IMG/VR virus record: IMGVR_UViG_3300045988_011059
Location: 1-44,609 of that record
DNA length: 44,609 bases
Reading direction: 5' to 3' (one strand)
From: a virus
Lineage: Duplodnaviria; Heunggongvirae; Uroviricota; Caudoviricetes
This document shows positions 1,895 to 41,067 of this stretch, one piece after another; position 1 is the stretch's first letter; every line of letters begins with the position of its first letter. A program made the translations under genes and the position numbers. The notes under the pieces are model-generated. The model worked only from the letters and a program-made list of their open reading frames with translations. It had not been told where the DNA came from and made no database searches.

Positions 1895-2163
1895 TTGAAT
1901 ATGATAATTACCACATAAACCGGTGTGAGGCACTTGAATTTTTGTCCAGAAACTTCCACGATTTCCCAGAACACATGCCTAATGTTCGCGAAGTTGCAGA
2001 GGGTATTTCCGAGAACATATTCAAAGGCTGGCGGTTCGTCGTTATTGATTCTGGTGAGTTGGTTTTCGCTGATTGCCTTTCACCATGTATTCGTAAAATA
2101 GACCTTGAGGAATTTAATGCGACTTTTAGTCTTTCCGAATGCCTGGACTATAGTCGTAGCTAA
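1891..2163 (+). CDS. Hypothetical protein (90 aa)
   Basis: ORF track; ATGA coupling. Confidence 0.55.
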   Translation: MIEYDNYHINRCEALEFLSRNFHDFPEHMPNVREVAEGISENIFKGWRFVVIDSGELVFADCLSPCIRKIDLEEFNATFSLSECLDYSRS

Positions 2164-2221
2164 CGACCATTACGGCGGCGATGGTAAAAGAGCACCACGA
2201 CACGGCCTATATAACTGATAC

Positions 2222-2245
2222 AAGCCCTCTACGGAGGGCTTTTCT
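2222..2245 (+). terminator. Rho-independent terminator
   Basis: AGCCCTC-TACG-GAGGGCT hairpin followed by TTTT. Confidence 0.6.
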
Positions 2246-2339
2246 GTACATCCCTCCCAATCCCCTTATATAATCCTTTTAGACGCGTAGGGCGCGTCTG
2301 ATGCGCTCTGATGGTCAGACGCATAAGCAAGGGGATTCT

Positions 2340-2885
2340 ATGAAGCTGAAACTTAAGCAGCCATCGCCAGAGGTGGTGCAAGCTGCACATGAAGAAGCGG
2401 TTAGCGCAAACCGTCGCCGTAGACGACCGCGTGGCAAACAGAGCCTTTATCAATCATCCCGTAATTCCGCCGCGTTGTGGGACCCGGACTATTGCGACGA
2501 ATTAATCGAGTTCTTCGACCGCACGTCGTGGGAACTGGTGCCTACGTCCAAAGGTGACGAACGTCCGCTGATTCAGGATAAGCCACCATCTCTGGCCCGC
2601 TTTGCCTTACATATCGGCGTCACTATCCCGATTATTAAGCTGTGGCTGCGCGAGATTCCCGCATTTGCCGAAGCCTATGAAACAGCACAGGCACTGGAAG
2701 AGGCATATTTCACTGAGACTGGGGCCGCGGGCATCTCTGCTACGTTTGCCGCCGCGAAGCTGGGACTCGGCAAAGAGAAACCGGTTGAATCGACCGAAGA
2801 AACAGCGCCAACAGAGATTATTTTCAGTGTTGCGGAGCCTGTGGGTAAAATCGTAACAACGAATATGGGTGAGGTAGAGGAATGA
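2340..2885 (+). CDS. Putative terminase small subunit
   Basis: Immediately upstream of and overlapping the large terminase; basic N-terminal region (RRRRRPRGK); AAGGGG RBS before ATG 2340; role inferred from position. Confidence 0.5.
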   Translation: MKLKLKQPSPEVVQAAHEEAVSANRRRRRPRGKQSLYQSSRNSAALWDPDYCDELIEFFDRTSWELVPTSKGDERPLIQDKPPSLARFALHIGVTIPIIKLWLREIPAFAEAYETAQALEEAYFTETGAAGISATFAAAKLGLGKEKPVESTEETAPTEIIFSVAEPVGKIVTTNMGEVEE

Positions 2886-4132
2886 GTATTCAGCTATCCG
2901 CGCCACAGGCTTTGTTCCTGAATTGTGACAATAAATACAAAGCATACGTCGGCGGCTTCGGCAGTGGCAAGACGTTTGTGGGCTGTCTGGACCTGCTTAC
3001 GTTCATGCTCAAGCATCCAGGTACGCGCCTTGGATACTTCGGCCCGACATATCCCGCTATACGCGACATCTTCTACCCGACATTCGAGGAAGCGGCTAAC
3101 CTGCTTGGCCTCGATGTGCTGGTTAAATCCGGCGACAAAGAGGTTGTGGTTACTCGCGGTAAGACGGTGCTCGGAACTGTTATCTGCCGTTCAATGGATA
3201 ACCCTGGCTCGATTGTGGGCTTCAAAATCGCCGCAGCTGTCGTGGATGAGCTGGACGTATTGAGTCGCGAGAAAGCTGAGCTGGCGTGGAACAAAATTGT
3301 AGCCCGTATGCGTCTGGTTATTCCTGGCATAACTAACCACATCTCTGTCACCACGACGCCAGAAGGGTTCAAGTTCGTCTACGCCAAGTTCAAAGAGAAC
3401 CCGACGCCTAGTTACTCGATGGTGCAGGCATCCACACATGAGAATGCGCGTTTTCTGCCGCCGGACTACATTAGCTCGCTGACCGAGACTTATCCGGCGC
3501 AACTGATTAACGCGTATCTGAACGGTGAGTTCGTCAACCTTACCTCCGGCAGCGTGTATTACGCGTATGACCGCCGTAAGCACCGCAGCAAAGAGACAAT
3601 TCAACCGGGCGACACGCTGTACATCGGGCAGGACTTCAACGTTACGAAGAACGCGAGCGCCGTATATGTACAGCGAAAAGACGGCTGGCACGCGGTGGCG
3701 GAACTGAAGGGCCTGTTCGATACACCAGACACCGTGCGTGTAATTACCGAGAAGTGGAAGTCGCAGGGCCACCGCATTGTCGTTTACCCCGATGCCAGCG
3801 GCAAGAACCGCAAGACAAACTCAGCGTCAATCTCTGATATTGCATTACTCCAGCAGGCCGGGTTCGATGTTCGCGCTAAATCCGCCAACCCTCCGGTTAA
3901 AGACCGTGTTTTAGCAGTGAATACCGCGCTGGAAAAAGGTAAGCTGTGGGTTAATGACCACTTATGCCCCGAGATAGCCAAGACGCTGGAACAGCAGGCA
4001 TACGATGATAACGGAGAGCCAGCTAAAGACGGCATCATTGACCATATGGCGGATGCTCTCGGCTACCCTGTAGTTTACGAGATGCCGGTGGTTAAACCAG
4101 TAATCAACATCCCGGTGACTTTCGCACTTTAA
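2882..4132 (+). CDS. Terminase large subunit
   Basis: Walker A GGFGSGKT near the N-terminus, about 416 aa, followed by the portal gene. Confidence 0.85.
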   Translation: MSIQLSAPQALFLNCDNKYKAYVGGFGSGKTFVGCLDLLTFMLKHPGTRLGYFGPTYPAIRDIFYPTFEEAANLLGLDVLVKSGDKEVVVTRGKTVLGTVICRSMDNPGSIVGFKIAAAVVDELDVLSREKAELAWNKIVARMRLVIPGITNHISVTTTPEGFKFVYAKFKENPTPSYSMVQASTHENARFLPPDYISSLTETYPAQLINAYLNGEFVNLTSGSVYYAYDRRKHRSKETIQPGDTLYIGQDFNVTKNASAVYVQRKDGWHAVAELKGLFDTPDTVRVITEKWKSQGHRIVVYPDASGKNRKTNSASISDIALLQQAGFDVRAKSANPPVKDRVLAVNTALEKGKLWVNDHLCPEIAKTLEQQAYDDNGEPAKDGIIDHMADALGYPVVYEMPVVKPVINIPVTFAL

Positions 4133-4144
4133 GAGGATTATTCA

Positions 4145-5626
4145 ATGTTAACTATGAACGGTCAGAATCAGGGTGTTAAGACAAAACACCGGGAATGGCT
4201 GCATCACTTCGATAAATGGCAGAAGGTACGCCACGCACTGGAAGGCGACCTTATTCGCTATCTTCGAAATGTCGGGAAGAACGAACCAGACCCGGCCTAC
4301 GCGGCACAGCGCCAGGAAGAATACGAGAACGGGGCTATCTGCTACAACTTCACTAAACGCACCCTGGCGGGGATGGTTGGCAGTGTCATGCGCAAAGACC
4401 CGGAACAGATCATTCCACCTGAACTGGAGTACCTGTTACGCAACGCTGACGGTTCTGGCGTCGGGCTGTGGCAGCACGCGCAGGACACGTTGATGGAGAT
4501 TGACTCGGTAGGGCGTGGTGGGTTGCTGGTGGACGCCCCGGAGACGGCTGCGGCGACGGCAGCTGAACAGAACGCCGGTTTATTAAACCCGGTCATCGCG
4601 TTCTATACCGCGGAGAACATCATCAACTGGCGACTGACCCGTATCGGTTCGGTTAACCGCGTGACAATGGTAGTGCTGCGTGAGGTGTGGGAATACTCAG
4701 AACCGGGTGCAGAGTTCGAAACAAAGTTCGGTGAGCAATATCGCGTCCTTGACCTTATTGATGGACGCTACCGTCAGCGCATTTACCGCTTCGATGCAGA
4801 AGGTGGCGCACAGGGTGAAGTAAAAGAAATCTTCCCGGAACTTGGCGAACAGTTGCGCGGCAAAATCCCGTTCACGTTCATCGGCGCAAGCAACAACGAT
4901 GCAACCATCGACGACGCACCTTTGCTGCCGTTGGCTGAGCTTAATATCGGACATTTCCGCAACAGCGCGGACAATGAGGAATCCAGCTTCGTTGTAGGCC
5001 AGCCCACTCTGTTCATCGCCCCGGGTGAGAACATGAGCATGGAACAGTGGGCAGAAGCCAACCCACACGGCGTGCGCATGGGGTCGCGCTCAGGCCATAA
5101 CATCGGTTACGGCGGCAATGCGTTTCTGGTTCAGGCGGGAGAGAACAACCTCGCCAAACAGAATATGCTGGACAAAGAGAATCAGGCCATCCAGATTGGT
5201 GCGCAGCTTATCACCCAGACGCAGCAAATCACCGCGGAATCGGCCCGGCTGCAACGCGGCGCTGATACGTCCGTTATGGCAACAATCGCACGTAACGTAA
5301 GCATGGCGTATACAGATGCGTTGCGCTGGGTTGCTGCGATGCTAGGGCTACGTGAAGGCACAGAGATTGAGTTCAAGCTGAATATGGAGTTCTTCCTGCA
5401 GCCTATGACCGCTCAGGACCGTGCACAGTGGATGGCGGACATTAACGCAGGCCTGTTACCGGCTACTGCTTACTACGCAGCGTTGCGTAAGGCGGGTGTA
5501 ACTGACTGGACGGATGAGGACATTCAGAACGCTATCGAGGATGCACCTCTGCCGATGGGCGCGGTTACCAAGGTAGCGGGGGAGATTCCGCAGTCGGCGC
5601 AGCAACAAGATACCATTCAGCGGTAA
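4145..5626 (+). CDS. Portal protein
   Basis: 493-aa ORF directly after the terminase with AAGAGGA RBS; call is by position and size. Confidence 0.75.
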   Translation: MLTMNGQNQGVKTKHREWLHHFDKWQKVRHALEGDLIRYLRNVGKNEPDPAYAAQRQEEYENGAICYNFTKRTLAGMVGSVMRKDPEQIIPPELEYLLRNADGSGVGLWQHAQDTLMEIDSVGRGGLLVDAPETAAATAAEQNAGLLNPVIAFYTAENIINWRLTRIGSVNRVTMVVLREVWEYSEPGAEFETKFGEQYRVLDLIDGRYRQRIYRFDAEGGAQGEVKEIFPELGEQLRGKIPFTFIGASNNDATIDDAPLLPLAELNIGHFRNSADNEESSFVVGQPTLFIAPGENMSMEQWAEANPHGVRMGSRSGHNIGYGGNAFLVQAGENNLAKQNMLDKENQAIQIGAQLITQTQQITAESARLQRGADTSVMATIARNVSMAYTDALRWVAAMLGLREGTEIEFKLNMEFFLQPMTAQDRAQWMADINAGLLPATAYYAALRKAGVTDWTDEDIQNAIEDAPLPMGAVTKVAGEIPQSAQQQDTIQR

Positions 5627-6739: not shown

Positions 6740-7200
6740 TGATGGGCTTTTTCAAAGTAACTGATGTACCGTCGCGTCGCGTAGTTCAGTACGCCCGAGT
6801 GTCTGGTTCTGGTGAGAACGTGGTATTTATCGAAGATGAAAGTGTACTTGGTACACCAGTAGACGACATGCCGTTTGCAGATAAAACCGGTATTGCGCTG
6901 CCGGCGGCGGGTATGCTTTATGAAATTCCGTATCTGGCTGATGCTGGCGACGTGTATTTCTCGGTGCAACCGAAAGACACAGAACTGGCAGACGGCAGCG
7001 CAACTATCACGGTCGAAGTTAAGGCTGGTAAAGCGCCGTATGCTCTGACCTGGTACAAAGATGGTAAGGAAGTTGTAAACGCACCCGAAGAGGCTTTGTC
7101 TCTTACGGTTAACGCGGCAGGCGAATACTTCGTTAAAGTTACCGATGCCGATGGTGTAGAGGCCGTCAGTAAAGCGGCGAAGGTCACTAAGCCTGAATAA
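6739..7200 (+). CDS. Ig-like domain protein (capsid-associated?)
   Basis: C-terminal segment YALTWYKDGKEV...GEYFVKVTDADG is typical of a bacterial Ig-like beta-sandwich. Confidence 0.55.
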   Translation: MMGFFKVTDVPSRRVVQYARVSGSGENVVFIEDESVLGTPVDDMPFADKTGIALPAAGMLYEIPYLADAGDVYFSVQPKDTELADGSATITVEVKAGKAPYALTWYKDGKEVVNAPEEALSLTVNAAGEYFVKVTDADGVEAVSKAAKVTKPE

Positions 7201-7203
7201 ACT

Positions 7204-7225
7204 AAGGCCCCGAAAGGGGCTTTTT
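7204..7225 (+). terminator. Rho-independent terminator
   Basis: AAGGCCCCGAAAGGGGCTTTTT hairpin plus T-run. Confidence 0.7.
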
Positions 7226-7254
7226 AGCGCCTGTTATTATTCCAGTTATTCCTC

Positions 7255-7305
7255 CTAATTGTAAATGTTGGAATAAACTATTCGAATAGTTGACTTTTCA
7301 CTAAA
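7255..7305 (+). promoter_or_regulatory. Putative regulated promoter: ATGTTGGAATAA box, palindrome ACTATTCGAATAGT, then TTGACT
   Basis: Read directly; ATGTTGGAATAA recurs at 8045-8056 upstream of the scaffold gene. Confidence 0.35.
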
Positions 7306-7542
7306 AATGTGATAAGCTCCACCTGAGCTTGTGAAGTATGAACAAGCGACCGCGGCGCGGGCAGGTAACGGAGCGGGACGTAAGTCCTGAGTGTAGTTAC
7401 GCTGACGCGTTCGGAAGGGCCATACTCTATTGCTTGTGTAAAAAGGAACGGGTTTACTGAGATTACGCCGTTTCTATGTTTAAATGATAAGGACTAGCGC
7501 CCCGCTTTATGGCGGGGCTTTACTTATCGAGAAAGGAGAAAC

Positions 7543-12377: not shown

Positions 12378-12790
12378 TGGGCTACTTTGAGGACTTAACA
12401 AAAGCGTTCGACGTGCCGCTGGTAGCCTTCGGAACCACCAACGGCATCAAGGTAGCACTTGAAAACATCGACGCGCCGACGTCAACCGATACGCCGTATC
12501 TGGCTAGTTACATGTTACTCGCGGATACGGAACAGGCTGATTTGTTCTTCACGGAACAACGCGCTGGCGTCTACCAGGTAGATATTAACTACGCATCGGT
12601 GAAAGGTAGCGCGCCGATCAATAAAATGGCAGACTTACTTAACACGGCGTTTAAAGCAGGTAAGTCATTTTCACGTAACAACATCTGCGCCGAGGTTCAA
12701 TCGGTTAGCCTGGGGCCACTGATTGTAGAAAACGGATGGGCAAAACGACCATTGTCAATTAACTTTATTGCATTCACCAAGAGGCTGTGA
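12374..12790 (+). CDS. Tail completion / terminator protein (putative)
   Basis: ORF track; directly precedes the major tail protein. Confidence 0.45.
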   Translation: MMGYFEDLTKAFDVPLVAFGTTNGIKVALENIDAPTSTDTPYLASYMLLADTEQADLFFTEQRAGVYQVDINYASVKGSAPINKMADLLNTAFKAGKSFSRNNICAEVQSVSLGPLIVENGWAKRPLSINFIAFTKRL

Positions 12791-12792
12791 AT

Positions 12793-13959
12793 ATGGCTAC
12801 AACTCCTTTTAAGGGCGCGAATACCGCGCAATTCTATGTGGCGGAAGTCACCCCGGGCGTAACACCGGCTAACCCGGTCTGGTCACCGTTGCGTAACACT
12901 GGCGGTGTTCCTGCTATCACCCGCGACACGCTGACCTCCAACGAACTGGACGGCAGCCGTGAAACTACATCCATCCGCACCGGTAACAAACAGGTTAGCG
13001 GTGAATACGCGATCGAGCTTAGCTCGAAAAGCCAGGATGACTGGCTGGCGGGTGCTTTAGGCTCTACGTGGCGATCCGGTGTTTCCCTGTCCAGTCTGTC
13101 GATTACCGTCGCACCCGCAGGCAAGACGTTCACACGCGCTACCGGCAGTTTTATCACTGACGGAGTTGTGGTAGGCGACCTGATTGCATTTACCGATTTA
13201 ACAGGCGATAACGCAAAACCATTTATTGTTACTGCAGTAACGGCTACGGTTGTTACTGGTGCAGGCATCCAACACACCCTGACCACCGAGACAAAAACTA
13301 GTAAGGCTAAAACCGGCGACACGCTGGAAACCGGTAACACGTGTAAGACGTTCTCTATCCTTACCTGGTACAAAGGCCAGTGCGGCGGTACTGACGCGTA
13401 CACGTTAACCAAAGGCGTGGAAGTTTCTGGTTTTACCATCGAACAGGCTGTTAACGCGATGGTAACTGGCAGCTTCCCATTCATAGGTCGCAGTCAGGAG
13501 ATTCTCACTACGCCGCCGACCGATTCCAACTTCTCATCTGTTACTTTTGGCGATGAGCCGTTCTCTTCGGTTGACGTTTCCGTGTTCGATGGCTCTACGC
13601 CGTTGCGTTGCGATAGCCTTACCATCACCAACGATAACAGCGCATCTGCGCAGTTCGAACTAGGCAACACTAACGTAGCGTTTGTGGAGCGTAGCCGTGC
13701 AGCTAACACCTTCTCCATCTCCGGTAAGCTGTATGACATGGCGATGATTCAGAAGTTTATCAACGAACAGCAGGTGGAGATTAACTCTATTCTGGCGGGG
13801 GTAAACGGAGCTATGTCTTTCAGTTTGAAACGTGCAGAACTCACGGCGGTTACACCAGAGATTGGGGGGCCTGAGTCAATCACTCAGTCCATTGAAGGCC
13901 AGGCTACCGGCAACCAGTACCAGTCGTCTATTGTTATCCAGCGTATCACCTACGCATAA
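12793..13959 (+). CDS. Major tail protein
   Basis: About 390-aa Thr/Ser/Gly-rich protein with AAGAGG RBS, followed by a strong terminator; positional. Confidence 0.7.
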   Translation: MATTPFKGANTAQFYVAEVTPGVTPANPVWSPLRNTGGVPAITRDTLTSNELDGSRETTSIRTGNKQVSGEYAIELSSKSQDDWLAGALGSTWRSGVSLSSLSITVAPAGKTFTRATGSFITDGVVVGDLIAFTDLTGDNAKPFIVTAVTATVVTGAGIQHTLTTETKTSKAKTGDTLETGNTCKTFSILTWYKGQCGGTDAYTLTKGVEVSGFTIEQAVNAMVTGSFPFIGRSQEILTTPPTDSNFSSVTFGDEPFSSVDVSVFDGSTPLRCDSLTITNDNSASAQFELGNTNVAFVERSRAANTFSISGKLYDMAMIQKFINEQQVEINSILAGVNGAMSFSLKRAELTAVTPEIGGPESITQSIEGQATGNQYQSSIVIQRITYA

Positions 13960-13963
13960 AACT

Positions 13964-13988
13964 AAGGCCCCGAAAGGGGCCTTTTCTT
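13964..13988. terminator. Bidirectional rho-independent terminator
   Basis: AAGGCCCCGAAAGGGGCCTTTT between convergent genes. Confidence 0.7.
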
Positions 13989-14163
13989 ACTCACTTTTGA
14001 ATGGCATTTCATAGAAGTTAGTTAACTGGCCTCGATCACTTCGTTCTGTCATTTCTTTTGAGGCCTCCTCCTTGCTACCAACGGCGTAAATATCGACCCA
14101 CTCGTCCCATTCTTCGTCGAATACGCGGATTACATATATTGTTTTCATAATGTTTTCACGCAT
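13987..14163 (-). CDS. Hypothetical acidic small protein
   Basis: ORF track frame; start at ATG 14163 or 14148; last gene of the minus-strand cassette. Confidence 0.4.
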   Translation of the reverse strand: MRENIMKTIYVIRVFDEEWDEWVDIYAVGSKEEASKEMTERSDRGQLTNFYEMPFKSE

Positions 14164-14725
14164 TTGGGTAAATCCCCAGGATTCTATTAGCAATCGCAGC
14201 CGCTGTTAATGTAATCTCGCCCGGAACGACGGCGACGTCATGGTGCACTACCCCATCAATATCGTACAGATAACCACGGCTGTCATCCTCAAACGTATAG
14301 CCGTCACGATGAAGGCGAACGATTCTCACGTCATGACCCGCGGCGACGATAGGAGTCACTTCACTGGCGAATCCGCCATCAGACACTACAAAAACTTCGT
14401 TGCCGTCTGGCAAGTTTTCAGCAAGATACTTACCGAAATAATCATTGCCAAGTACAGGCTTAATGAATTGCTCCGAGATAGCAATCATGAACTGACGTCG
14501 CGACAACCCATTAAGGAAACATTCTGGCTTTTCTTTCCGTGCCCGGTCGTCGTAGCCGTCGAGAAACTCATGGTAAGCATCCGGACCTAACGCCGCCAAA
14601 GCAATATTGAACATTGGATTCTTGAAACTGGTAGTTCCTTTCGCAAAGCCCATTTCTACCAGTGCCATAGCAAGCGTGTCTTTCCCGCAACCCGCAGGAC
14701 CATTAAGAATAATTACCTTAGCCAT
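14156..14725 (-). CDS. P-loop nucleotide / polynucleotide kinase-like protein
   Basis: Walker A GPAGCGKDT near the N-terminus, like the G-x-GKDT P-loop of T4 dNMP kinase. Confidence 0.65.
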   Translation of the reverse strand: MAKVIILNGPAGCGKDTLAMALVEMGFAKGTTSFKNPMFNIALAALGPDAYHEFLDGYDDRARKEKPECFLNGLSRRQFMIAISEQFIKPVLGNDYFGKYLAENLPDGNEVFVVSDGGFASEVTPIVAAGHDVRIVRLHRDGYTFEDDSRGYLYDIDGVVHHDVAVVPGEITLTAAAIANRILGIYPNA

Positions 14726-15210
14726 TATTTATCGCTCCCATGTGGCTTTAAGTGTGAAGAGTTCCCGTTACAGTCATATTCGGTAACCGCGTGAGTGGTT
14801 ATGCCGAGTTCGCGGAAATGCTTTATTACCGCGGGAGAGTCGTCGAATGCGCACAAGATTCTTTCCAGCCCGATAGCACGTAGCACCTCTTCCTTAATTA
14901 CGATGTCTTTTCTGTTGTCGTGTTTGCTGCGCATGATTAACTGGTAAAATTCGACGCGGTGGCGCTGCAACCACATTCTTGTTTCTTTTTCCGCGTCATC
15001 ACTGCGGCCCGTTAAAATAACAACGGCGTAGCAGCGATTAAGGGCGTTACACAGTTCGATGTTATCTATAATTGGTTCATCATCTTTGCACGCCATGTTA
15101 AATGGTTTCCACGCCCAGGTTTCGCCGTAGTTATCTTTCGGCAGCAGGTGTAAACGATGAGTACCATCCGCCAATGTCCCGTCTAAATCGAAAATCACAA
15201 TATCTTTCAT
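14725..15210 (-). CDS. HAD-superfamily phosphatase, T4 Pnk phosphatase-domain-like
   Basis: N-terminal IVIFDLDGTLA (DxDGT), then LTGRS and RKD...KEE...DD motifs in the same order as the T4 polynucleotide kinase 3'-phosphatase domain. Confidence 0.7.
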   Translation of the reverse strand: MKDIVIFDLDGTLADGTHRLHLLPKDNYGETWAWKPFNMACKDDEPIIDNIELCNALNRCYAVVILTGRSDDAEKETRMWLQRHRVEFYQLIMRSKHDNRKDIVIKEEVLRAIGLERILCAFDDSPAVIKHFRELGITTHAVTEYDCNGNSSHLKPHGSDK

Positions 15211-16337
15211 CCCAGCATCTCCGGTGAAATAGTTAAACGTGCGACCTCGCCAAATTCGGCGCTATAAGTAATTACATTTGCGCTACGGCCCGACATCCAA
15301 CCTCCGCGGGAGGCGTAGGCGTCTTTAGCCGCTAAGGTGCGGTGTTGCTCAACAATCATGTTACGGCTTTCCACAATCTTCTGATGGTGCAGGTGTCCTA
15401 CATGGGCGTAGCTGTAAACACTCTCACCGAACGCTTTGCGGAACTTGGCGATCATAACCGGTTCGATAGCGTCGAAGCGTGCTTTATGTCCGTGGTGAAA
15501 GAACAGCGTCGTTTTGCCGTGTTGCACCATCTTGTAAACATCCGGTGACGTATCGACGAACACACGCGGCTCATTGTCATACAGCGTACTGAACATCTCA
15601 GCCAACCAAATCATGCCACTTTCGTCGTGATTCCCTTGCACGATAAGCAAGCGAACATTTTTATGCTTAACCAGCGCCATATCGACAACACGGCGGACCA
15701 TGCGAATCATGTAGCGGACAAGTTTCTGGTAACGGGTGTCGGCGTCAAGGGCGTGACCGCTTGCAGGTGTAACGGCAACCAGACTATCGAAGTGCGCGAA
15801 GTCGCCCAGCAGGTTAATAACCCCAGTCCCCGCATCCGGTGCTTTCTGAAACGCCGCGTCGAACCAGCGAGAGAACAGGTCTTCCGCAATCTTCATATCC
15901 CAGTCGTCGCCGCTCTCGTCGGCCCAGGCCAGCATACCGAGATGAAAATCGGATACAGTGTAAAGATTAAGCAGTTTATCGTCGCGTTTGGCTCGGGTTG
16001 CTTTAACAGGTGCAACCGGAGTAATCTCTGACTTCATGCCTTCGATTACGGCTTTCATCAACTCGACCTGACGTTCTGCGTCTGTGTCGGTCTTAACCCA
16101 TTGCAACTTAGTGTTGCCGAACTCGTCCACAAGTGACGACGTTCCTTTAATCTTGTAGCCATCTGGCACAAGGTGACTAACGTCGCGCCCGTGGCCTACG
16201 CCTTTCTTAGCCAGCTTCGCTTTACGGATGCGAATAACGCGGTCTGAGATGCCGTATTTACGGGCGATGTCGATATTCTTCATACCGGCGTTCAATTCTT
16301 CCTGCAACTGTTCGTCGGTTATTTTCTTCCTGGCCAT
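15207..16337 (-). CDS. Calcineurin-like metallophosphoesterase with N-terminal HTH
   Basis: Motifs D-x-H (SDFHLG), GD (LLGDFAH), GNHD (QGNHDE), GHxH (HHGH / GHLHH); N-terminal NIDIARKYGISDRVIRIRKA resembles an HTH. Confidence 0.7.
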   Translation of the reverse strand: MARKKITDEQLQEELNAGMKNIDIARKYGISDRVIRIRKAKLAKKGVGHGRDVSHLVPDGYKIKGTSSLVDEFGNTKLQWVKTDTDAERQVELMKAVIEGMKSEITPVAPVKATRAKRDDKLLNLYTVSDFHLGMLAWADESGDDWDMKIAEDLFSRWFDAAFQKAPDAGTGVINLLGDFAHFDSLVAVTPASGHALDADTRYQKLVRYMIRMVRRVVDMALVKHKNVRLLIVQGNHDESGMIWLAEMFSTLYDNEPRVFVDTSPDVYKMVQHGKTTLFFHHGHKARFDAIEPVMIAKFRKAFGESVYSYAHVGHLHHQKIVESRNMIVEQHRTLAAKDAYASRGGWMSGRSANVITYSAEFGEVARLTISPEMLG

Positions 16338-16401
16338 GCTTATTCCTCGTGCTTAGGATTTGTCCTATTTAACCACAGTGCATTCCTTTAAATAAAGGCG
16401 A

Positions 16402-16728
16402 CTATTTACTTTCTGCGCCTATTGCCCACCCAGTCATTACCATTTGCAGGCGGGTGGCGGTCAGTAGGCTGTAAACCGCGTCTCCGTTTTTCTCTACAGA
16501 ACGTATTACCGTGTATGTTACGGCTTGCGGAGGCAGGCCCGATTTACCAACCTCTACGGCTGCCTCACACTCGCGAACGGTAGAGTCCTTAAATGCCTTT
16601 ACAATAGTAGGGTCGGCTCTATCAAGCACACCAGAAGTCATAAGAACGGATTCACTAAACACCTGTTCACACGGAGACCCAAAAGTAGCAAAAGACATAA
16701 AACCAAGAGCTAACACTAATTTACGCAT
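16402..16728 (-). CDS. Secreted / periplasmic protein with signal peptide
   Basis: N-terminal MRKLVLALGFMSFATFG is a classic signal peptide; no lipobox. Confidence 0.6.
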   Translation of the reverse strand: MRKLVLALGFMSFATFGSPCEQVFSESVLMTSGVLDRADPTIVKAFKDSTVRECEAAVEVGKSGLPPQAVTYTVIRSVEKNGDAVYSLLTATRLQMVMTGWAIGAESK

Positions 16729-16756
16729 AATTATTTCCTCAGTAAGTTACAGGTGA

Positions 16757-16785
16757 ATAGTACCCTATTATATCGGGGTGTGCAA
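16757..16785 (-). promoter_or_regulatory. Early-type promoter TTGCAC-N17-TACTAT (minus strand)
   Basis: Reverse complement reads TTGCACACCCCGATATAATAGGGTACTATTCAC, near-identical over about 33 nt to the promoter at 39230-39258. Confidence 0.55.
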
Positions 16786-16892
16786 GTAGTGTGCTAGAAT
16801 AAGTTTGCGCCTAGTGTCGCACACGAAAAGCGGGTGGTTCCCGTCTGGCGCGTCAACCTTAACCTGTAACCTCTTAACCAAAGGACTAAAGA

Positions 16893-17309
16893 ATGAAACT
16901 TTCTGATTTCTATTTTGCTGACCGACACGCTGCCGGTACTAAAATGCCTATCCTTCTGCCGAGTGGTAAAGACTCCGGAGAATGGTTGCAGGTCATTGGT
17001 CCTGATTGTGATGTCGGGGTTCGCGCGGGCCGCGCCTACACAACGGCAATTCGACGCCTTACGGAAGAACTTGCGCCATTAGATAAAGAGTGTGAGGCAC
17101 TGAATAACTGGGCGCGTTATAATGATGAGAAGGGCTGGCGGGTGATGGACCTGAACAAGCAGCTTGCCGTGGAAATCGTCACCGGTTGGTCATTCGACGA
17201 ACCGTTCAGCAAAGAGGCGCTGGCTAACCTGTTTGACCAGTACAGTGGGTTGGCAGAAGCCGTAGTTAAGCACCACACCGATAGCCGCGAGAAACTCTCG
17301 GAAAAGTAA
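16893..17309 (+). CDS. Tail assembly chaperone (G-like)
   Basis: 138-aa ORF immediately upstream of the tape measure gene. Confidence 0.6.
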   Translation: MKLSDFYFADRHAAGTKMPILLPSGKDSGEWLQVIGPDCDVGVRAGRAYTTAIRRLTEELAPLDKECEALNNWARYNDEKGWRVMDLNKQLAVEIVTGWSFDEPFSKEALANLFDQYSGLAEAVVKHHTDSREKLSEK

Positions 17310-17671
17310 AAGCGCTGTATGAATTTGCGCAATGGTGCTTTGTCGACCGCCAGAAACGTAAGCAATTCGACGACATCGCGGCGGGGCACCAGGCGGCTTT
17401 GATTGCAATGGGCGTGATTAAAGAACCGCAGATGAAAGAAGCGACGGGGCCAGAATGCCCCGTTTCTCTTATCGACGTGTTCGAGAAATACCGTGCCATT
17501 AAATTCCTACAGCGCGAAACAGATGATACTATCGTTATAATCCCGCGCGATGCGCTCAAATGGCAAGATTTGGTAGCGTTTCGTGATGTCGCCGGTTACG
17601 GCATAAGTTTGTTCGAAGCCGAGGTTATCATGGGCTTAGACGGAATATTTGAGGGCAGAGAAGATGGCTGA
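17285..17671 (+). CDS. Putative -1 frame extension of the tail assembly chaperone (T-like)
   Basis: The -1 frame is open from 17285 and overlaps the last 25 nt of the chaperone; no ATG or RBS of its own; ends overlapping the tape measure start. Confidence 0.4.
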   Translation, partial: PRETLGKVKALYEFAQWCFVDRQKRKQFDDIAAGHQAALIAMGVIKEPQMKEATGPECPVSLIDVFEKYRAIKFLQRETDDTIVIIPRDALKWQDLVAFRDVAGYGISLFEAEVIMGLDGIFEGREDG

Positions 17672-29481: not shown

Positions 29482-29799
29482 TTATAATTCCTTATATTGT
29501 TGGGGTATGTACTTACTATAATAGTCCGCTACTAGGGTGTCAACCTGTTTTATCGAACCAACTACAAAAACATTTGCGCCACGTTTACGCATCCGCTCGT
29601 GTTCCCGTAACTGGTGAGGGTCTGGCTTCGTGTTTTCGTCTTTCTTAACCTCGACGAACCAGACGATGCCGTTGGGGAGAATTACCAGCAGGTCGGGAGC
29701 GCCGGAACGTCCTTCGTAGGAAAGTTTACGAACGAGGCCGCCAATGGCCTCGAATCGGTCTTTTGCGTATTTCTGGATGCGCCCCTCAGGCGTACTCAT
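29482..29799 (-). CDS. VRR-NUC domain nuclease
   Basis: PD-(D/E)XK-type motif PDLLV...FVEVKK in a roughly 105-aa protein. Confidence 0.75.
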   Translation of the reverse strand: MSTPEGRIQKYAKDRFEAIGGLVRKLSYEGRSGAPDLLVILPNGIVWFVEVKKDENTKPDPHQLREHERMRKRGANVFVVGSIKQVDTLVADYYSKYIPQQYKEL

Positions 29800-32998: not shown

Positions 32999-33027
32999 AC
33001 TATAATAGCTAACTATTCAGGTGTCAA
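32999..33027 (-). promoter_or_regulatory. Sigma70-like promoter TTGACA-N17-TATAGT (minus strand)
   Basis: Reverse complement TTGACACCTGAATAGTTAGCTATTATAGTT; spacer carries the GAATAGT motif. Confidence 0.55.
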
Positions 33028-35740: not shown

Positions 35741-35769
35741 ACTATAATAGCGAACTATTCACGTGTCAA
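35741..35769 (-). promoter_or_regulatory. Sigma70-like promoter TTGACA-N17-TATAGT (minus strand)
   Basis: Reverse complement TTGACACGTGAATAGTTCGCTATTATAGTT; near-identical to the promoter at 32999-33027. Confidence 0.55.
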
Positions 35770-38854: not shown

Positions 38855-39150
38855 ACATAATCGCACCTATTGACATTATGAAAATCTTCGTTTAAGGTGC
38901 TTCTATATCTTAGTTACTTTGATTCCTGTTCACCTTGTAATACCCGCTTGAAACGCAGCGGCGCACCAGCGCCAGCGAAGTGTTAAGCGGCAGATTACTG
39001 AACATAAGAATTATCGTAACTTTCCTTCCTTAGTATCTCCGGTTGCCCTGGGCAAGCTCTATTCTCATCGGCAGCATATCTCTTAAGTATATGATAATTA
39101 AAAGTTTCTATAGTTGCCGTAAGCAAGGTAGAGAGTACTTCACTCCGCTG

Positions 39151-39170
39151 GGGTGGGCTAACGCCCACCC
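39151..39170. other. Perfect GC-rich hairpin GGGTGGGC-TAAC-GCCCACCC
   Basis: 8-bp inverted repeat read directly, inside the 465-bp divergent control region. Confidence 0.6.
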
Positions 39171-39229
39171 ACTGCGTTGCGTACTCTTTTAAGAAACGAA
39201 CGAATCACAACGGCAACGTAACTATTCTC

Positions 39230-39258
39230 TTGCACACCCCAACATAATAGGATACTAT
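39230..39258 (+). promoter_or_regulatory. Early-type promoter TTGCAC-N17-TACTAT
   Basis: TTGCAC 39230-39235, TACTAT 39253-39258; flanked by ACTATTC motifs. Confidence 0.55.
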
Positions 39259-39292
39259 TCACTTATCGAAACGAGACATAAGGAATTTAGAA

Positions 39293-41007: not shown

Positions 41008-41036
41008 TTGCACGCTGAAATAGAATAGGCTACTAT
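41008..41036 (+). promoter_or_regulatory. Early-type promoter TTGCAC-N17-TACTAT
   Basis: TTGCAC 41008-41013, TACTAT 41031-41036; same architecture as 39230-39258. Confidence 0.55.
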
Positions 41037-41067
41037 TCATTTACACAGACGAGAGGAGAGACAGAAG

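Follow-up and report, generated by a model that had tools for sequence, protein, structure and literature searches.

The 44,609-nucleotide virus sequence analyzed in this study (IMG/VR record IMGVR_UViG_3300045988_011059, hereafter the window) contains a block of five minus-strand genes that separates the plus-strand tail tube gene from the plus-strand genes for the tail assembly chaperones. Our results showed that this block is a known, widely annotated, mix-and-match set of phage DNA/nucleotide enzymes, of which one component has been characterized experimentally in an ortholog. The block is probably a mosaic accessory island, in which early-expressed DNA breakdown and nucleotide salvage are combined with an envelope moron, and not a system for nucleic-acid repair. 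An earlier reading of the same DNA without database searches (the sequence-only reading) had described the genes for a signal-peptide protein, a metallophosphoesterase (MPE) with a helix-turn-helix (HTH), a HAD phosphatase and a P-loop kinase in this block, and had proposed them as a candidate for an undescribed counter-defense or nucleotide-remodeling module. Its observation was confirmed: all five open reading frames (ORFs) were found where it had placed them (13987-16728 in the ORF list), and all of its domain calls were borne out. Its interpretation was supported in part. The word "undescribed" did not hold: annotations of the trio of MPE, HAD and kinase genes are routine for phages of the Kagunavirus, Webervirus and T1-like groups, the trio has been discussed as extending the replication module toward nucleotide supply (PMC13164509), and its kinase has a characterized ortholog.

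The kinase was 48% identical to R1DNK, the gp58 product of the T1-like Escherichia phage Rao1, over 184/189 residues (E 7e-61). R1DNK is a deoxynucleoside monophosphate (dNMP) kinase (DNK) that has been characterized genetically and metabolically and that triggers the Kongming (KomABC) defense (bioRxiv 10.1101/2024.12.20.629578). Because of this full-length identity to a characterized enzyme, the window kinase is predicted by orthology to be a dNMP kinase. Previous results showed that the Kongming escapers of Rao1 map to gp58 (L136P, E158G, R61Q, M45T and promoter mutations), that the K15A substitution in R1DNK abolishes Kongming triggering, that deletion of dnk from Rao1 lowers dATP with no laboratory fitness cost, and that the DNKs of Klebsiella Webervirus vB_KpnS-VAC2 and of Bas06 likewise trigger Kongming (bioRxiv 10.1101/2024.12.20.629578). 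The printed sequences of the VAC2 and Bas06 DNKs had conserved motifs in common with the window kinase. G14, K15, D16 and R61 were invariant in 35 members of the kinase family, of which K15 and R61 are the positions functionally affected in R1DNK (K15A and the escaper R61Q, respectively). The sequences of R1DNK and of T5 Dmp used for comparison were taken from the supplement of the Kongming paper (bioRxiv 10.1101/2024.12.20.629578).

Family-level comparisons were also made. The kinase belonged to phrog_139, "deoxynucleoside monophosphate kinase" (1.9e-45), which was also matched by T4 gp1 (1.8e-65), and had no match to phrog_505. With hhalign, the kinase family aligned with T4 gp1 over 74-142 columns (probability 66-77%, E 2e-5 to 5e-5), whereas its alignment with T4 Pnkp was limited to 28 P-loop columns. 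These alignments place the kinase as gp1/DNK-like, not Pnk-like. Pfam detected only the P-loop (AAA_33, E 0.075), and a profile hidden Markov model search of the PDB sequences with the kinase family returned nothing significant. A single-sequence AlphaFold model of the kinase was discarded (predicted local distance difference test, pLDDT, 49.6). The dnk gene of T5 was not found within the two T5 genome regions examined. In a phage of 142 kb, a gene of the same kinase family is flanked by the genes for a HAD nucleotidase (phrog_420) and a phrog_403 protein, with those for thymidylate synthase and ribonucleotide reductase nearby.

The stand-alone HAD phosphatase matched Pfam HAD_PNKP at 8.5e-19 (68.5 bits, with a cut-off of 27.6) and phrog_415 at 2.6e-65. 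Its matches in the PDB included Pnkp1 of Capnocytophaga (4xrp, 2.9e-6) and T4 Pnk (1ltq/5uj0). BLASTP aligned it with residues 162-300 of T4 Pnkp at 2e-9 over 155 residues, the DxDGT nucleophile motif included, in agreement with the resemblance to the T4 Pnk 3'-phosphatase that the sequence-only reading had noticed. The identity to Rao1 gp57 was 49% (E 2e-49). The match to T5 Dmp, in contrast, covered 59 residues only (E 8e-4), and those to the nucleotidase family phrog_420 (2.9e-8) and to Pfam NT5C were also weak. By sequence similarity, the Pnkp phosphatase is a much nearer relative of the HAD than Dmp is. T5 Dmp is a 5'-deoxyribonucleotidase that drains dAMP and blocks Kongming, and its homologs co-occur with DNKs (bioRxiv 10.1101/2024.12.20.629578). 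From its DLDGT motif and the D22A mutant in that paper, it appears to be a DxD (HAD-type) phosphatase. Rao1 is sensitive to Kongming and is protected only by T5 Dmp supplied in trans (bioRxiv 10.1101/2024.12.20.629578). Because Rao1 remains sensitive although it carries an orthologous HAD beside its DNK, the Pnkp-type HAD is, by analogy, probably not an effective Dmp equivalent.

In the MPE, an N-terminal three-helix HTH (residues 8-43) is followed by a beta-hairpin (61-85) and a helix, and the remainder, from about residue 119 to 376, is a calcineurin-like binuclear phosphoesterase domain. Its AlphaFold model was based on an alignment of 79 diverse homologs (pLDDT 85.6), which were gathered with a profile of 50%-level representatives; the plain MPE query gave only proteins that were 97-99% identical. 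Pfam Metallophos and Metallophos_2 matched the MPE weakly. Five motifs (DxH, GD, GNH[DE], H and GHxH) were invariant in the 79 homologs, the residues being D130/H132, D179, N236/H237/D238, H282 and H315/H317. The homologs also carried HTH matches in precomputed Pfam annotation, and the HTH gave weak matches to GerE/LuxR and to a PHROG named "late transcriptional activator". From its motifs and model, the MPE is predicted to be an active phosphoesterase with a DNA-binding module of its own.

Foldseek matched the modeled fold to 135 MPE chains of the PDB at E < 1e-3. The top folds were those of Mre11, Rv0805, GpdQ, Vps29, YfcE and the small subunits of PolD/Pol-delta, with template modeling (TM) scores of about 0.3-0.5. 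Rv0805 is a cyclic nucleoside monophosphate (cNMP) phosphodiesterase. Similar to Mre11/SbcD and to the Pseudomonas putida MPE, the window MPE has the binuclear metallophosphoesterase fold and all five motifs, and Mre11 was its best Foldseek match. Its motif forms SDFHLG (SDxHLG) and GDxxH presumably resemble those of Mre11/SbcD, which is a lead only. Different from these enzymes, however, it has an N-terminal HTH and beta-hairpin extension that is unique to its family, and no Rad50/SbcC-type ATPase partner was found in the island or beside MPE homologs in 9 other phages. A search of BFVD returned uncharacterized phage MPEs only, and one source names an MPE homolog "Nuclease MPE". On the most economical reading, the MPE is most likely a DNA-directed phosphodiesterase, that is, a nuclease.

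The MPE was found in 2052 phage records and in 4630 protein clusters at 50% identity, 1151 of them at < 1e-30. Guernseyvirinae, Drexlerviridae and Dhillonvirus have it as a core gene, as do thousands of uncultured phages. Its identity to Rao1 gp56 was 46% (E 4e-114). The Rao1 genome (PQ221054.1) has gp56 (377 residues), gp57 (annotated as polynucleotide kinase, 182 residues), the DNK gene gp58, the small ORF gp59 and genes for holin, endolysin and spanin. The order of HTH-MPE, Pnkp-type HAD and DNK is thus the same in Rao1 and the window, with identities of 46, 49 and 48%, respectively, and with Lys15 and Arg61 conserved. Different from the window, however, the three Rao1 genes point in the same direction as the replication genes and are located shortly before the lysis cassette. 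The window trio is inverted in the tail module, has its own promoter and is flanked by the genes for an envelope protein and a small acidic ORF. Within the window, the stop codon of the MPE gene overlaps the start codon of the HAD gene (ATGA), as does the stop codon of the HAD gene that of the kinase gene (TAATG); these overlaps predict that the three genes are translationally coupled.

To follow the block across relatives, 80 IMG/VR loci were retrieved with the MPE and gene content was scored for each locus. In the 15 loci whose MPEs were at least 93% identical to that of the window, HAD and kinase genes were both present in 7 and both missing from 8, and no locus had a single one of them. 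In the phage records, MPEs of at least 90% identity numbered 112, and HADs and kinases of at least 80% identity numbered 57 and 53, respectively. In Jerseyvirus SS10 and SE129, an island at the same tube/chaperone site, in the same orientation and with the same promoter core contains sie (phrog_1039), an MPE that is 88-89% identical to the window MPE, an ORF of 76 residues, and Ant or HNH. Different from the window, these islands have no HAD or kinase gene, and an Imm-like protein takes the place of the 108-residue signal-peptide protein. In Dhillonvirus, Hanrivervirus and Vibrio phages, the MPE gene adjoins lysis genes and has no partner of the trio, and one uncultured phage has it as a single opposite-strand gene where two modules meet. 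The T1 genes for HAD and kinase are split by a homing endonuclease gene and lie among small early genes, and no MPE was found within the 9.5-kb stretch examined. In Webervirus KL, MPE, HAD and kinase genes occur in the same order as in the window and are followed by a holin gene.

Thus, the block is a mosaic and not an obligate unit: the MPE is constant, HAD and kinase are present or absent as a pair, and the promoter-proximal slot is swappable. The sequence-only reading had treated the three enzymes as one module, which is not borne out, as about half of the close relatives, and Jerseyvirus, have no HAD and kinase, and in T1 the pair is far from the MPE. By its own terms, its proposal would fall if profile searches showed the enzymes to be a universally conserved set of the usual kind with a common dNMP kinase. 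This largely applies to the kinase, but not to the uncharacterized MPE and HAD.

Similar neighborhoods were found with other MPEs. Autographiviridae encode an MPE of a different family (phrog_221), whose neighbors are a DNA ligase and a member of the same kinase family in Proteus phage Pm5460 and Vibrio phage MGD2, and a HAD that is 59% identical to that of the window in Pectobacterium phage PhiM1. By these family assignments, the MPE/HAD/kinase neighborhood recurs with non-orthologous MPEs, and the recurrence links the kinase and HAD families to general DNA/nucleotide metabolism. It was also reported that, of the genes located directly after the exonuclease gene, those for polynucleotide kinase and dNMP kinase are the most frequent, and it was suggested that they enhance nucleotide supply (PMC13164509). 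In a different phage (locus L056, IMGVR_UViG_2974653390_000001), MPE, HAD and kinase genes are present with an MPE that is only 53% identical to that of the window.

The IMG/VR loci without the pair have a conserved ORF of 76 residues (MTSKYNRTMTNTHGSTM...; phrog_2452 in SS10) that is translationally coupled to the MPE gene (L024, L026, L029, L031-L036, L038, L050 and L057; at about 7128-7358 in most). Some of them add an HNH endonuclease, an ORF of 66 residues, a membrane protein of 77 residues or an Ant-like protein. The 76-residue ORF was looked for in the window and was absent, and the HAD and kinase pair and this ORF therefore look like alternative cargos. An HNH homing endonuclease gene lies between the HAD and kinase genes of T1 (L021, MN153797.1, 4444-6030) and directly after the MPE gene in SE129 (L018, 5171-5671) and in some Kagunavirus contigs (L034 and L035, 7137-7610). 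Homing may drive the exchange of cargo at this locus.

Two elements bound the block. The sequence-only reading had proposed a bidirectional terminator at its distal end, and a hairpin with T-runs on both sides was found there (AAGGCCCC-GAAA-GGGGCCTT). Its folding energy was -16.3 kcal/mol on the plus strand (z -4.1) and about -16 to -17 kcal/mol on the minus strand (z -3.3), and it is predicted to end the tail-tube and cassette transcripts alike. At the other end, the near-identity that had been claimed between the cassette promoter and a promoter of the early region held: the two 33-mers were identical at 30/33 positions (3 mismatches), with a chance expectation of 0. The first ATG after the 39230 promoter is at about 39293, which puts this promoter ~30 nucleotides (nt) upstream of the first gene of its array. 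The putative -35 and -10 hexamers of the cassette promoter had only 7/12 consensus matches and were missed by a simple scanner. The Jerseyvirus counterpart reads TTGCAT-17-TATTAT, and an intergenic alignment of 4 Kagunavirus and 2 Jerseyvirus-type genomes showed that TTGC, the 17-nt spacing and TA.TAT are kept and that the spacer has diverged. A real sigma-70 promoter would be expected to show such a conserved core together with a diverged spacer. The TATAAT within the 33-mer was rejected as a -10 element, as no -35 element is found 16-18 nt upstream and the Jerseyvirus copies lack it. It is reasonable to put the cassette promoter in the same class as the "early" small-gene promoter, which makes expression of the cassette independent of the tail genes plausible.

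The promoter-proximal protein had a sole PHROG match, phrog_14165 (function unknown; 6.6e-55), and did not match phrog_1039, "immunity to superinfection". In K1G, EcoPhCCP1, SS10 and SE129, the same slot is occupied by a phrog_1039 protein of 59-63 residues, for which those of K1G and SS10 gave values of 1e-22 to 3e-23. The slot thus holds the 108-residue phrog_14165 protein, an Imm-like phrog_1039 protein (in most relatives) or nothing, and the analogy between the two proteins is positional only. The small acidic ORF at the other end of the block had no Pfam, PHROG or NCBIfam match and no clear Shine-Dalgarno sequence. It was present in IMG/VR loci L027 and L034, the latter of which has no HAD or kinase gene, and was absent from phage K1H; in EcoPhCCP1, an ORF of similar size is annotated at its position. 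It is an independently variable accessory gene.

The proposed course of events is as follows. Host RNA polymerase would transcribe the island leftward from the sigma-70 promoter of the early-region class and would stop at the shared hairpin. The first product would go to the envelope, where by its position it would likely be a superinfection-exclusion analog. The HTH-MPE would cleave DNA as a phosphodiesterase, and the HAD, where present, would remove 3'-phosphates from DNA ends or nucleotides, as its Pnkp homology suggests. The kinase would turn dNMPs released in infection into dNDPs for phage DNA synthesis, as shown for the Rao1 ortholog. Being dispensable in rich laboratory conditions and exposing the phage to Kongming, the kinase may be a liability in Kongming hosts, which is the rationale we propose for the gain and loss of the pair among near-identical phages.

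Several results weigh against this reading. The best structural matches of the MPE had TM scores of only about 0.4, and the second of them was the cNMP phosphodiesterase Rv0805. A profile of the MPE family gave no significant match among PDB sequences, including Mre11, SbcD and the P. putida MPE, and hhalign found no match between the MPE family and D12, the SbcD homolog of T5. For the kinase, Pfam DNMK (PF21448, the T4 gp1 model) matched neither the window protein nor the 7 family members examined. A 3'-phosphatase has no obvious place in the salvage of 5'-dNMPs, and HAD and kinase, being strictly inherited together and translationally coupled, are reminiscent of a split Pnkp. Finally, a patchy accessory distribution is also typical of anti-defense genes.

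A more specific form of the salvage reading is possible, though we hold it only tentatively and consider it more doubtful than the general one: in T1-, Jersey- and Dhillon-like phages, the HTH-MPE would be the nuclease that degrades the host chromosome to dNMPs, with HAD and kinase downstream as a salvage line under an early promoter. If so, the MPE would be the upstream source of the dNMPs recycled by the adjacent kinase as well as the source of the nucleotide danger signals (dAMP and m6-dAMP) read by defenses including Kongming and PUA-Cal-HAD, 3'-phosphate ends left by the MPE would be removed by the Pnkp-type HAD, and the trio would be a compact "degrade, heal, re-phosphorylate" salvage line. 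The mycobacteriophage MPE gp48 is an early host-DNA-degrading enzyme (PMC12287305). It was rejected as a model for the window MPE, as its motif I starts at residue 10 and it has no HTH extension, so the analogy is at the superfamily level only. Literature searches on Guernseyvirinae with metallophosphoesterase, on T1 host DNA degradation and on Jerseyvirus transcriptomes found nothing usable.

The sequence-only reading had considered that a kinase with two phosphoesterases provides the chemistry of nucleic-acid end healing. As counter-defense, the HAD would trim 3'- or 2',3'-cyclic phosphates, the kinase would act on 5'-OH ends, the MPE would be a cyclic phosphodiesterase and host ligase would seal the tRNA or DNA that host nucleases had cut, so that the trio would be a split, non-orthologous analog of T4 or bacterial Pnkp. 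Similar to the T4 system of Pnkp (PseT) and RNA ligase 1, the window has a phosphatase homologous to the C-terminal 3'-phosphatase domain (DxDxT) and an adjoining P-loop kinase; the domains closest to the HAD are those of T4 Pnkp and Capnocytophaga Pnkp1, and HAD and kinase were never separated in the 15 close loci. Moreover, the Autographiviridae kinase gene is directly upstream of the DNA ligase gene and next to another MPE gene, and the phosphatase domain of bacterial Pnkp is a metallophosphoesterase (PMC2190708). Different from the T4 system, however, the window has two separate proteins in reverse order and no ligase. The absence of a ligase had been noted in the sequence-only reading and was upheld, as none is annotated in the close relative EcoPhCCP1 and none was found among the 8 large ORFs scanned in the replication region of the window. 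End healing also loses its kinase, because the window kinase aligns with T4 gp1 and not with Pnk beyond the P-loop; in addition, loss of the dNMP kinase of which it is an ortholog lowers dATP. The MPE has an HTH and persists in phages without HAD and kinase, and in T1 the pair is not adjacent to an MPE gene. With a gp1/DNK-like kinase in a phage without a ligase, end healing is disfavored and we regard it as improbable.

Another possibility is counter-defense at the level of nucleotide pools or second messengers, in which the HAD would be a Dmp-like drain of dAMP against Kongming, for which the phage's own kinase is the trigger, and/or the MPE would degrade cyclic-nucleotide signals or counter dNTP depletion. 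Consistent with this, the cNMP phosphodiesterase Rv0805 was the second-best structural match of the MPE, and the distribution of HAD and kinase is that of a patchy accessory pair. Similar to T4 gp1/T5 Dnk with T5 Dmp, the window has a co-inherited pair of kinase and HAD phosphatase, T4 gp1 and the window kinase have phrog_139 in common, and the HAD has weak similarity to T5 Dmp, a DxD phosphatase whose homologs co-occur with DNKs, to phrog_420 and to NT5C. A bacterial pair of a calcineurin-like phosphoesterase and a HAD acts on dNTPs (bioRxiv 10.64898/2026.01.15.699771). Different from these systems, however, the window kinase is missed by Pfam DNMK and the HAD resembles Pnkp more than it does Dmp, and Rao1, with its 49% identical HAD beside the DNK, has no Kongming protection unless T5 Dmp is supplied. 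Moreover, none of the 5 island proteins had a significant PADLOC match, the kinase giving one weak match limited to the P-loop (E 0.046), and an HTH-fused, near-universal core gene is atypical of anti-defense enzymes that degrade signals. We consider this possibility unlikely.

It is also unlikely that the HTH-MPE is mainly a DNA-binding regulator of late transcription or lysis timing, or a replication/recombination nuclease acting on phage DNA, with its neighbors as hot-spot passengers: its conserved N-terminal HTH with the weak GerE/LuxR and "late transcriptional activator" matches, its position directly upstream of holin-endolysin-spanin in 508/522 Drexlerviridae (PMC13164509) and near lysis genes in Dhillonvirus and Vibrio phages, its lone opposite-strand copy at a module boundary in an uncultured phage and the free exchange of downstream cargo would all fit, but the invariance of the metal-ligand motifs in 79 diverse homologs indicates that catalysis is under selection, the MPE, HAD and kinase genes are coupled in the window and keep their order in Webervirus and Rao1, and in podoviruses, the same HAD and kinase families are repeatedly found next to MPEs of different families.

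The presence or absence of HAD and kinase in near-identical Kagunavirus genomes is a natural test set for salvage versus Kongming-type sensing, a trade-off that is relevant to the choice of therapeutic K1-specific phages. The HTH-MPE is among the most widespread uncharacterized enzymes of virulent siphophages. The tube/chaperone site is a conserved position for cargo that has a promoter and a terminator of its own, and it could serve phage engineering. A cassette that looked exotic is thus a known gene set, one component of which has a published function and an immune consequence.

Table 1. Features of the island and its flanks in the window, and related podovirus loci.
Feature	Position	Strand	Remarks
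Tail tube gene	12787-13959	plus	Pfam Phage_tube_2, 1.9e-37; left flank of island
Predicted bidirectional intrinsic terminator hairpin	13964-13983	both	8-bp GC-rich stem, GAAA loop, T-run each side
Small acidic ORF	13987-14148	minus	53 residues from ATG (or 68 from TTG at 14193); isoelectric point 4.5
P-loop kinase, predicted dNMP kinase (DNK)	14156-14725	minus	189 residues; Walker A GPAGCGKDT; Rao1 gp58/R1DNK ortholog
Stand-alone HAD phosphatase, Pnkp 3'-phosphatase type	14725-15210	minus	161 residues; DLDGT nucleophile motif
HTH-metallophosphoesterase	15207-16337	minus	376 residues; phrog_704, 1.5e-166; constant anchor gene of island
Promoter-proximal protein	16402-16728	minus	108 residues; signal-peptide-like N-terminus (MRK and 12-residue hydrophobic core)
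Putative sigma-70-type cassette promoter	16753-16785	minus	TTGCAC, 17 nt, TACTAT
Tail assembly chaperones	16893-17309, 17399-17671	plus	Phage_TAC_4 and Phage_TAC_18; right flank of island
Sister promoter	39230-39262	plus	Head of plus-strand small-gene array (presumed early region)
Third, looser promoter copy	41008-41040	plus	TTGCACGCTGAAATAGAATAGGCTACTATTCAT; 25/33 identical
Podovirus neighborhoods (T7-/phiKMV-like phages)	L008 Pm5460 2424-5005; L007 MGD2 2093-5038; L022 PhiM1 2530-3983		

Escherichia phages K1H and M01 and other K1-specific siphophages had a nucleotide identity of ~91% to the 3-kb region of the island. This region was matched by 271 phage records, including 139 of Salmonella phages, 114 of Escherichia phages and 11 named Kagunavirus. 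These matches place the window as a Kagunavirus-like (Guernseyvirinae) genome. The layout of EcoPhCCP1, a fully annotated relative, is equal to that of the window: a long co-directional array holds small genes and the genes for lysis, head and tail, the replication module is divergent, and a short opposite-strand block separates the tail tube gene from the genes for the tail assembly chaperones. The two chaperone ORFs of the window correspond to the two-piece joined chaperone coding sequence in the annotation of K1H and K1G. By analogy, this correspondence suggests that a programmed frameshift of the usual kind precedes the tape measure gene.

Further elements were observed in the intergenic regions. 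In the gap between the cassette promoter and the chaperone genes, a block of ~50 nt (about 16800-16860; GCGCCAGACGGGAACCACCCGCTTTTCGTGTGCGACACTAGGCGCAAA, minus strand) is near-invariant from Kagunavirus to Jerseyvirus, in contrast to the diverged spacer of the adjoining promoter. The block had no repeat elsewhere in the window and its folding was not significant (z -0.68); it may be a promoter or control region that restarts the transcription of tail genes after the island. In the divergent control region, the 39230 promoter is preceded at a distance of ~60 nt by a hairpin with a perfect 8-bp GC-rich stem and no T-run (GGGTGGGC-GTTA-GCCCACCC, about 39150-39172). Finally, a second promoter-like family was found on the minus strand in 3 copies before genes of the replication module (35741-35769, 32999-33027 and 29515-29543). 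Its sequence is TTGACAC.TGAATAGTT.GCTATTATAGT, with a -35 element of TTGACA, a spacing of 17 nt and a -10 element of TATAGT, and its consensus is TTGACAC(C/G)(T/C)(G/T)A(A/G)TAG...(C/T)TATTATAGT. The phage thus seems to have two putative promoter classes for its two divergent gene arrays.

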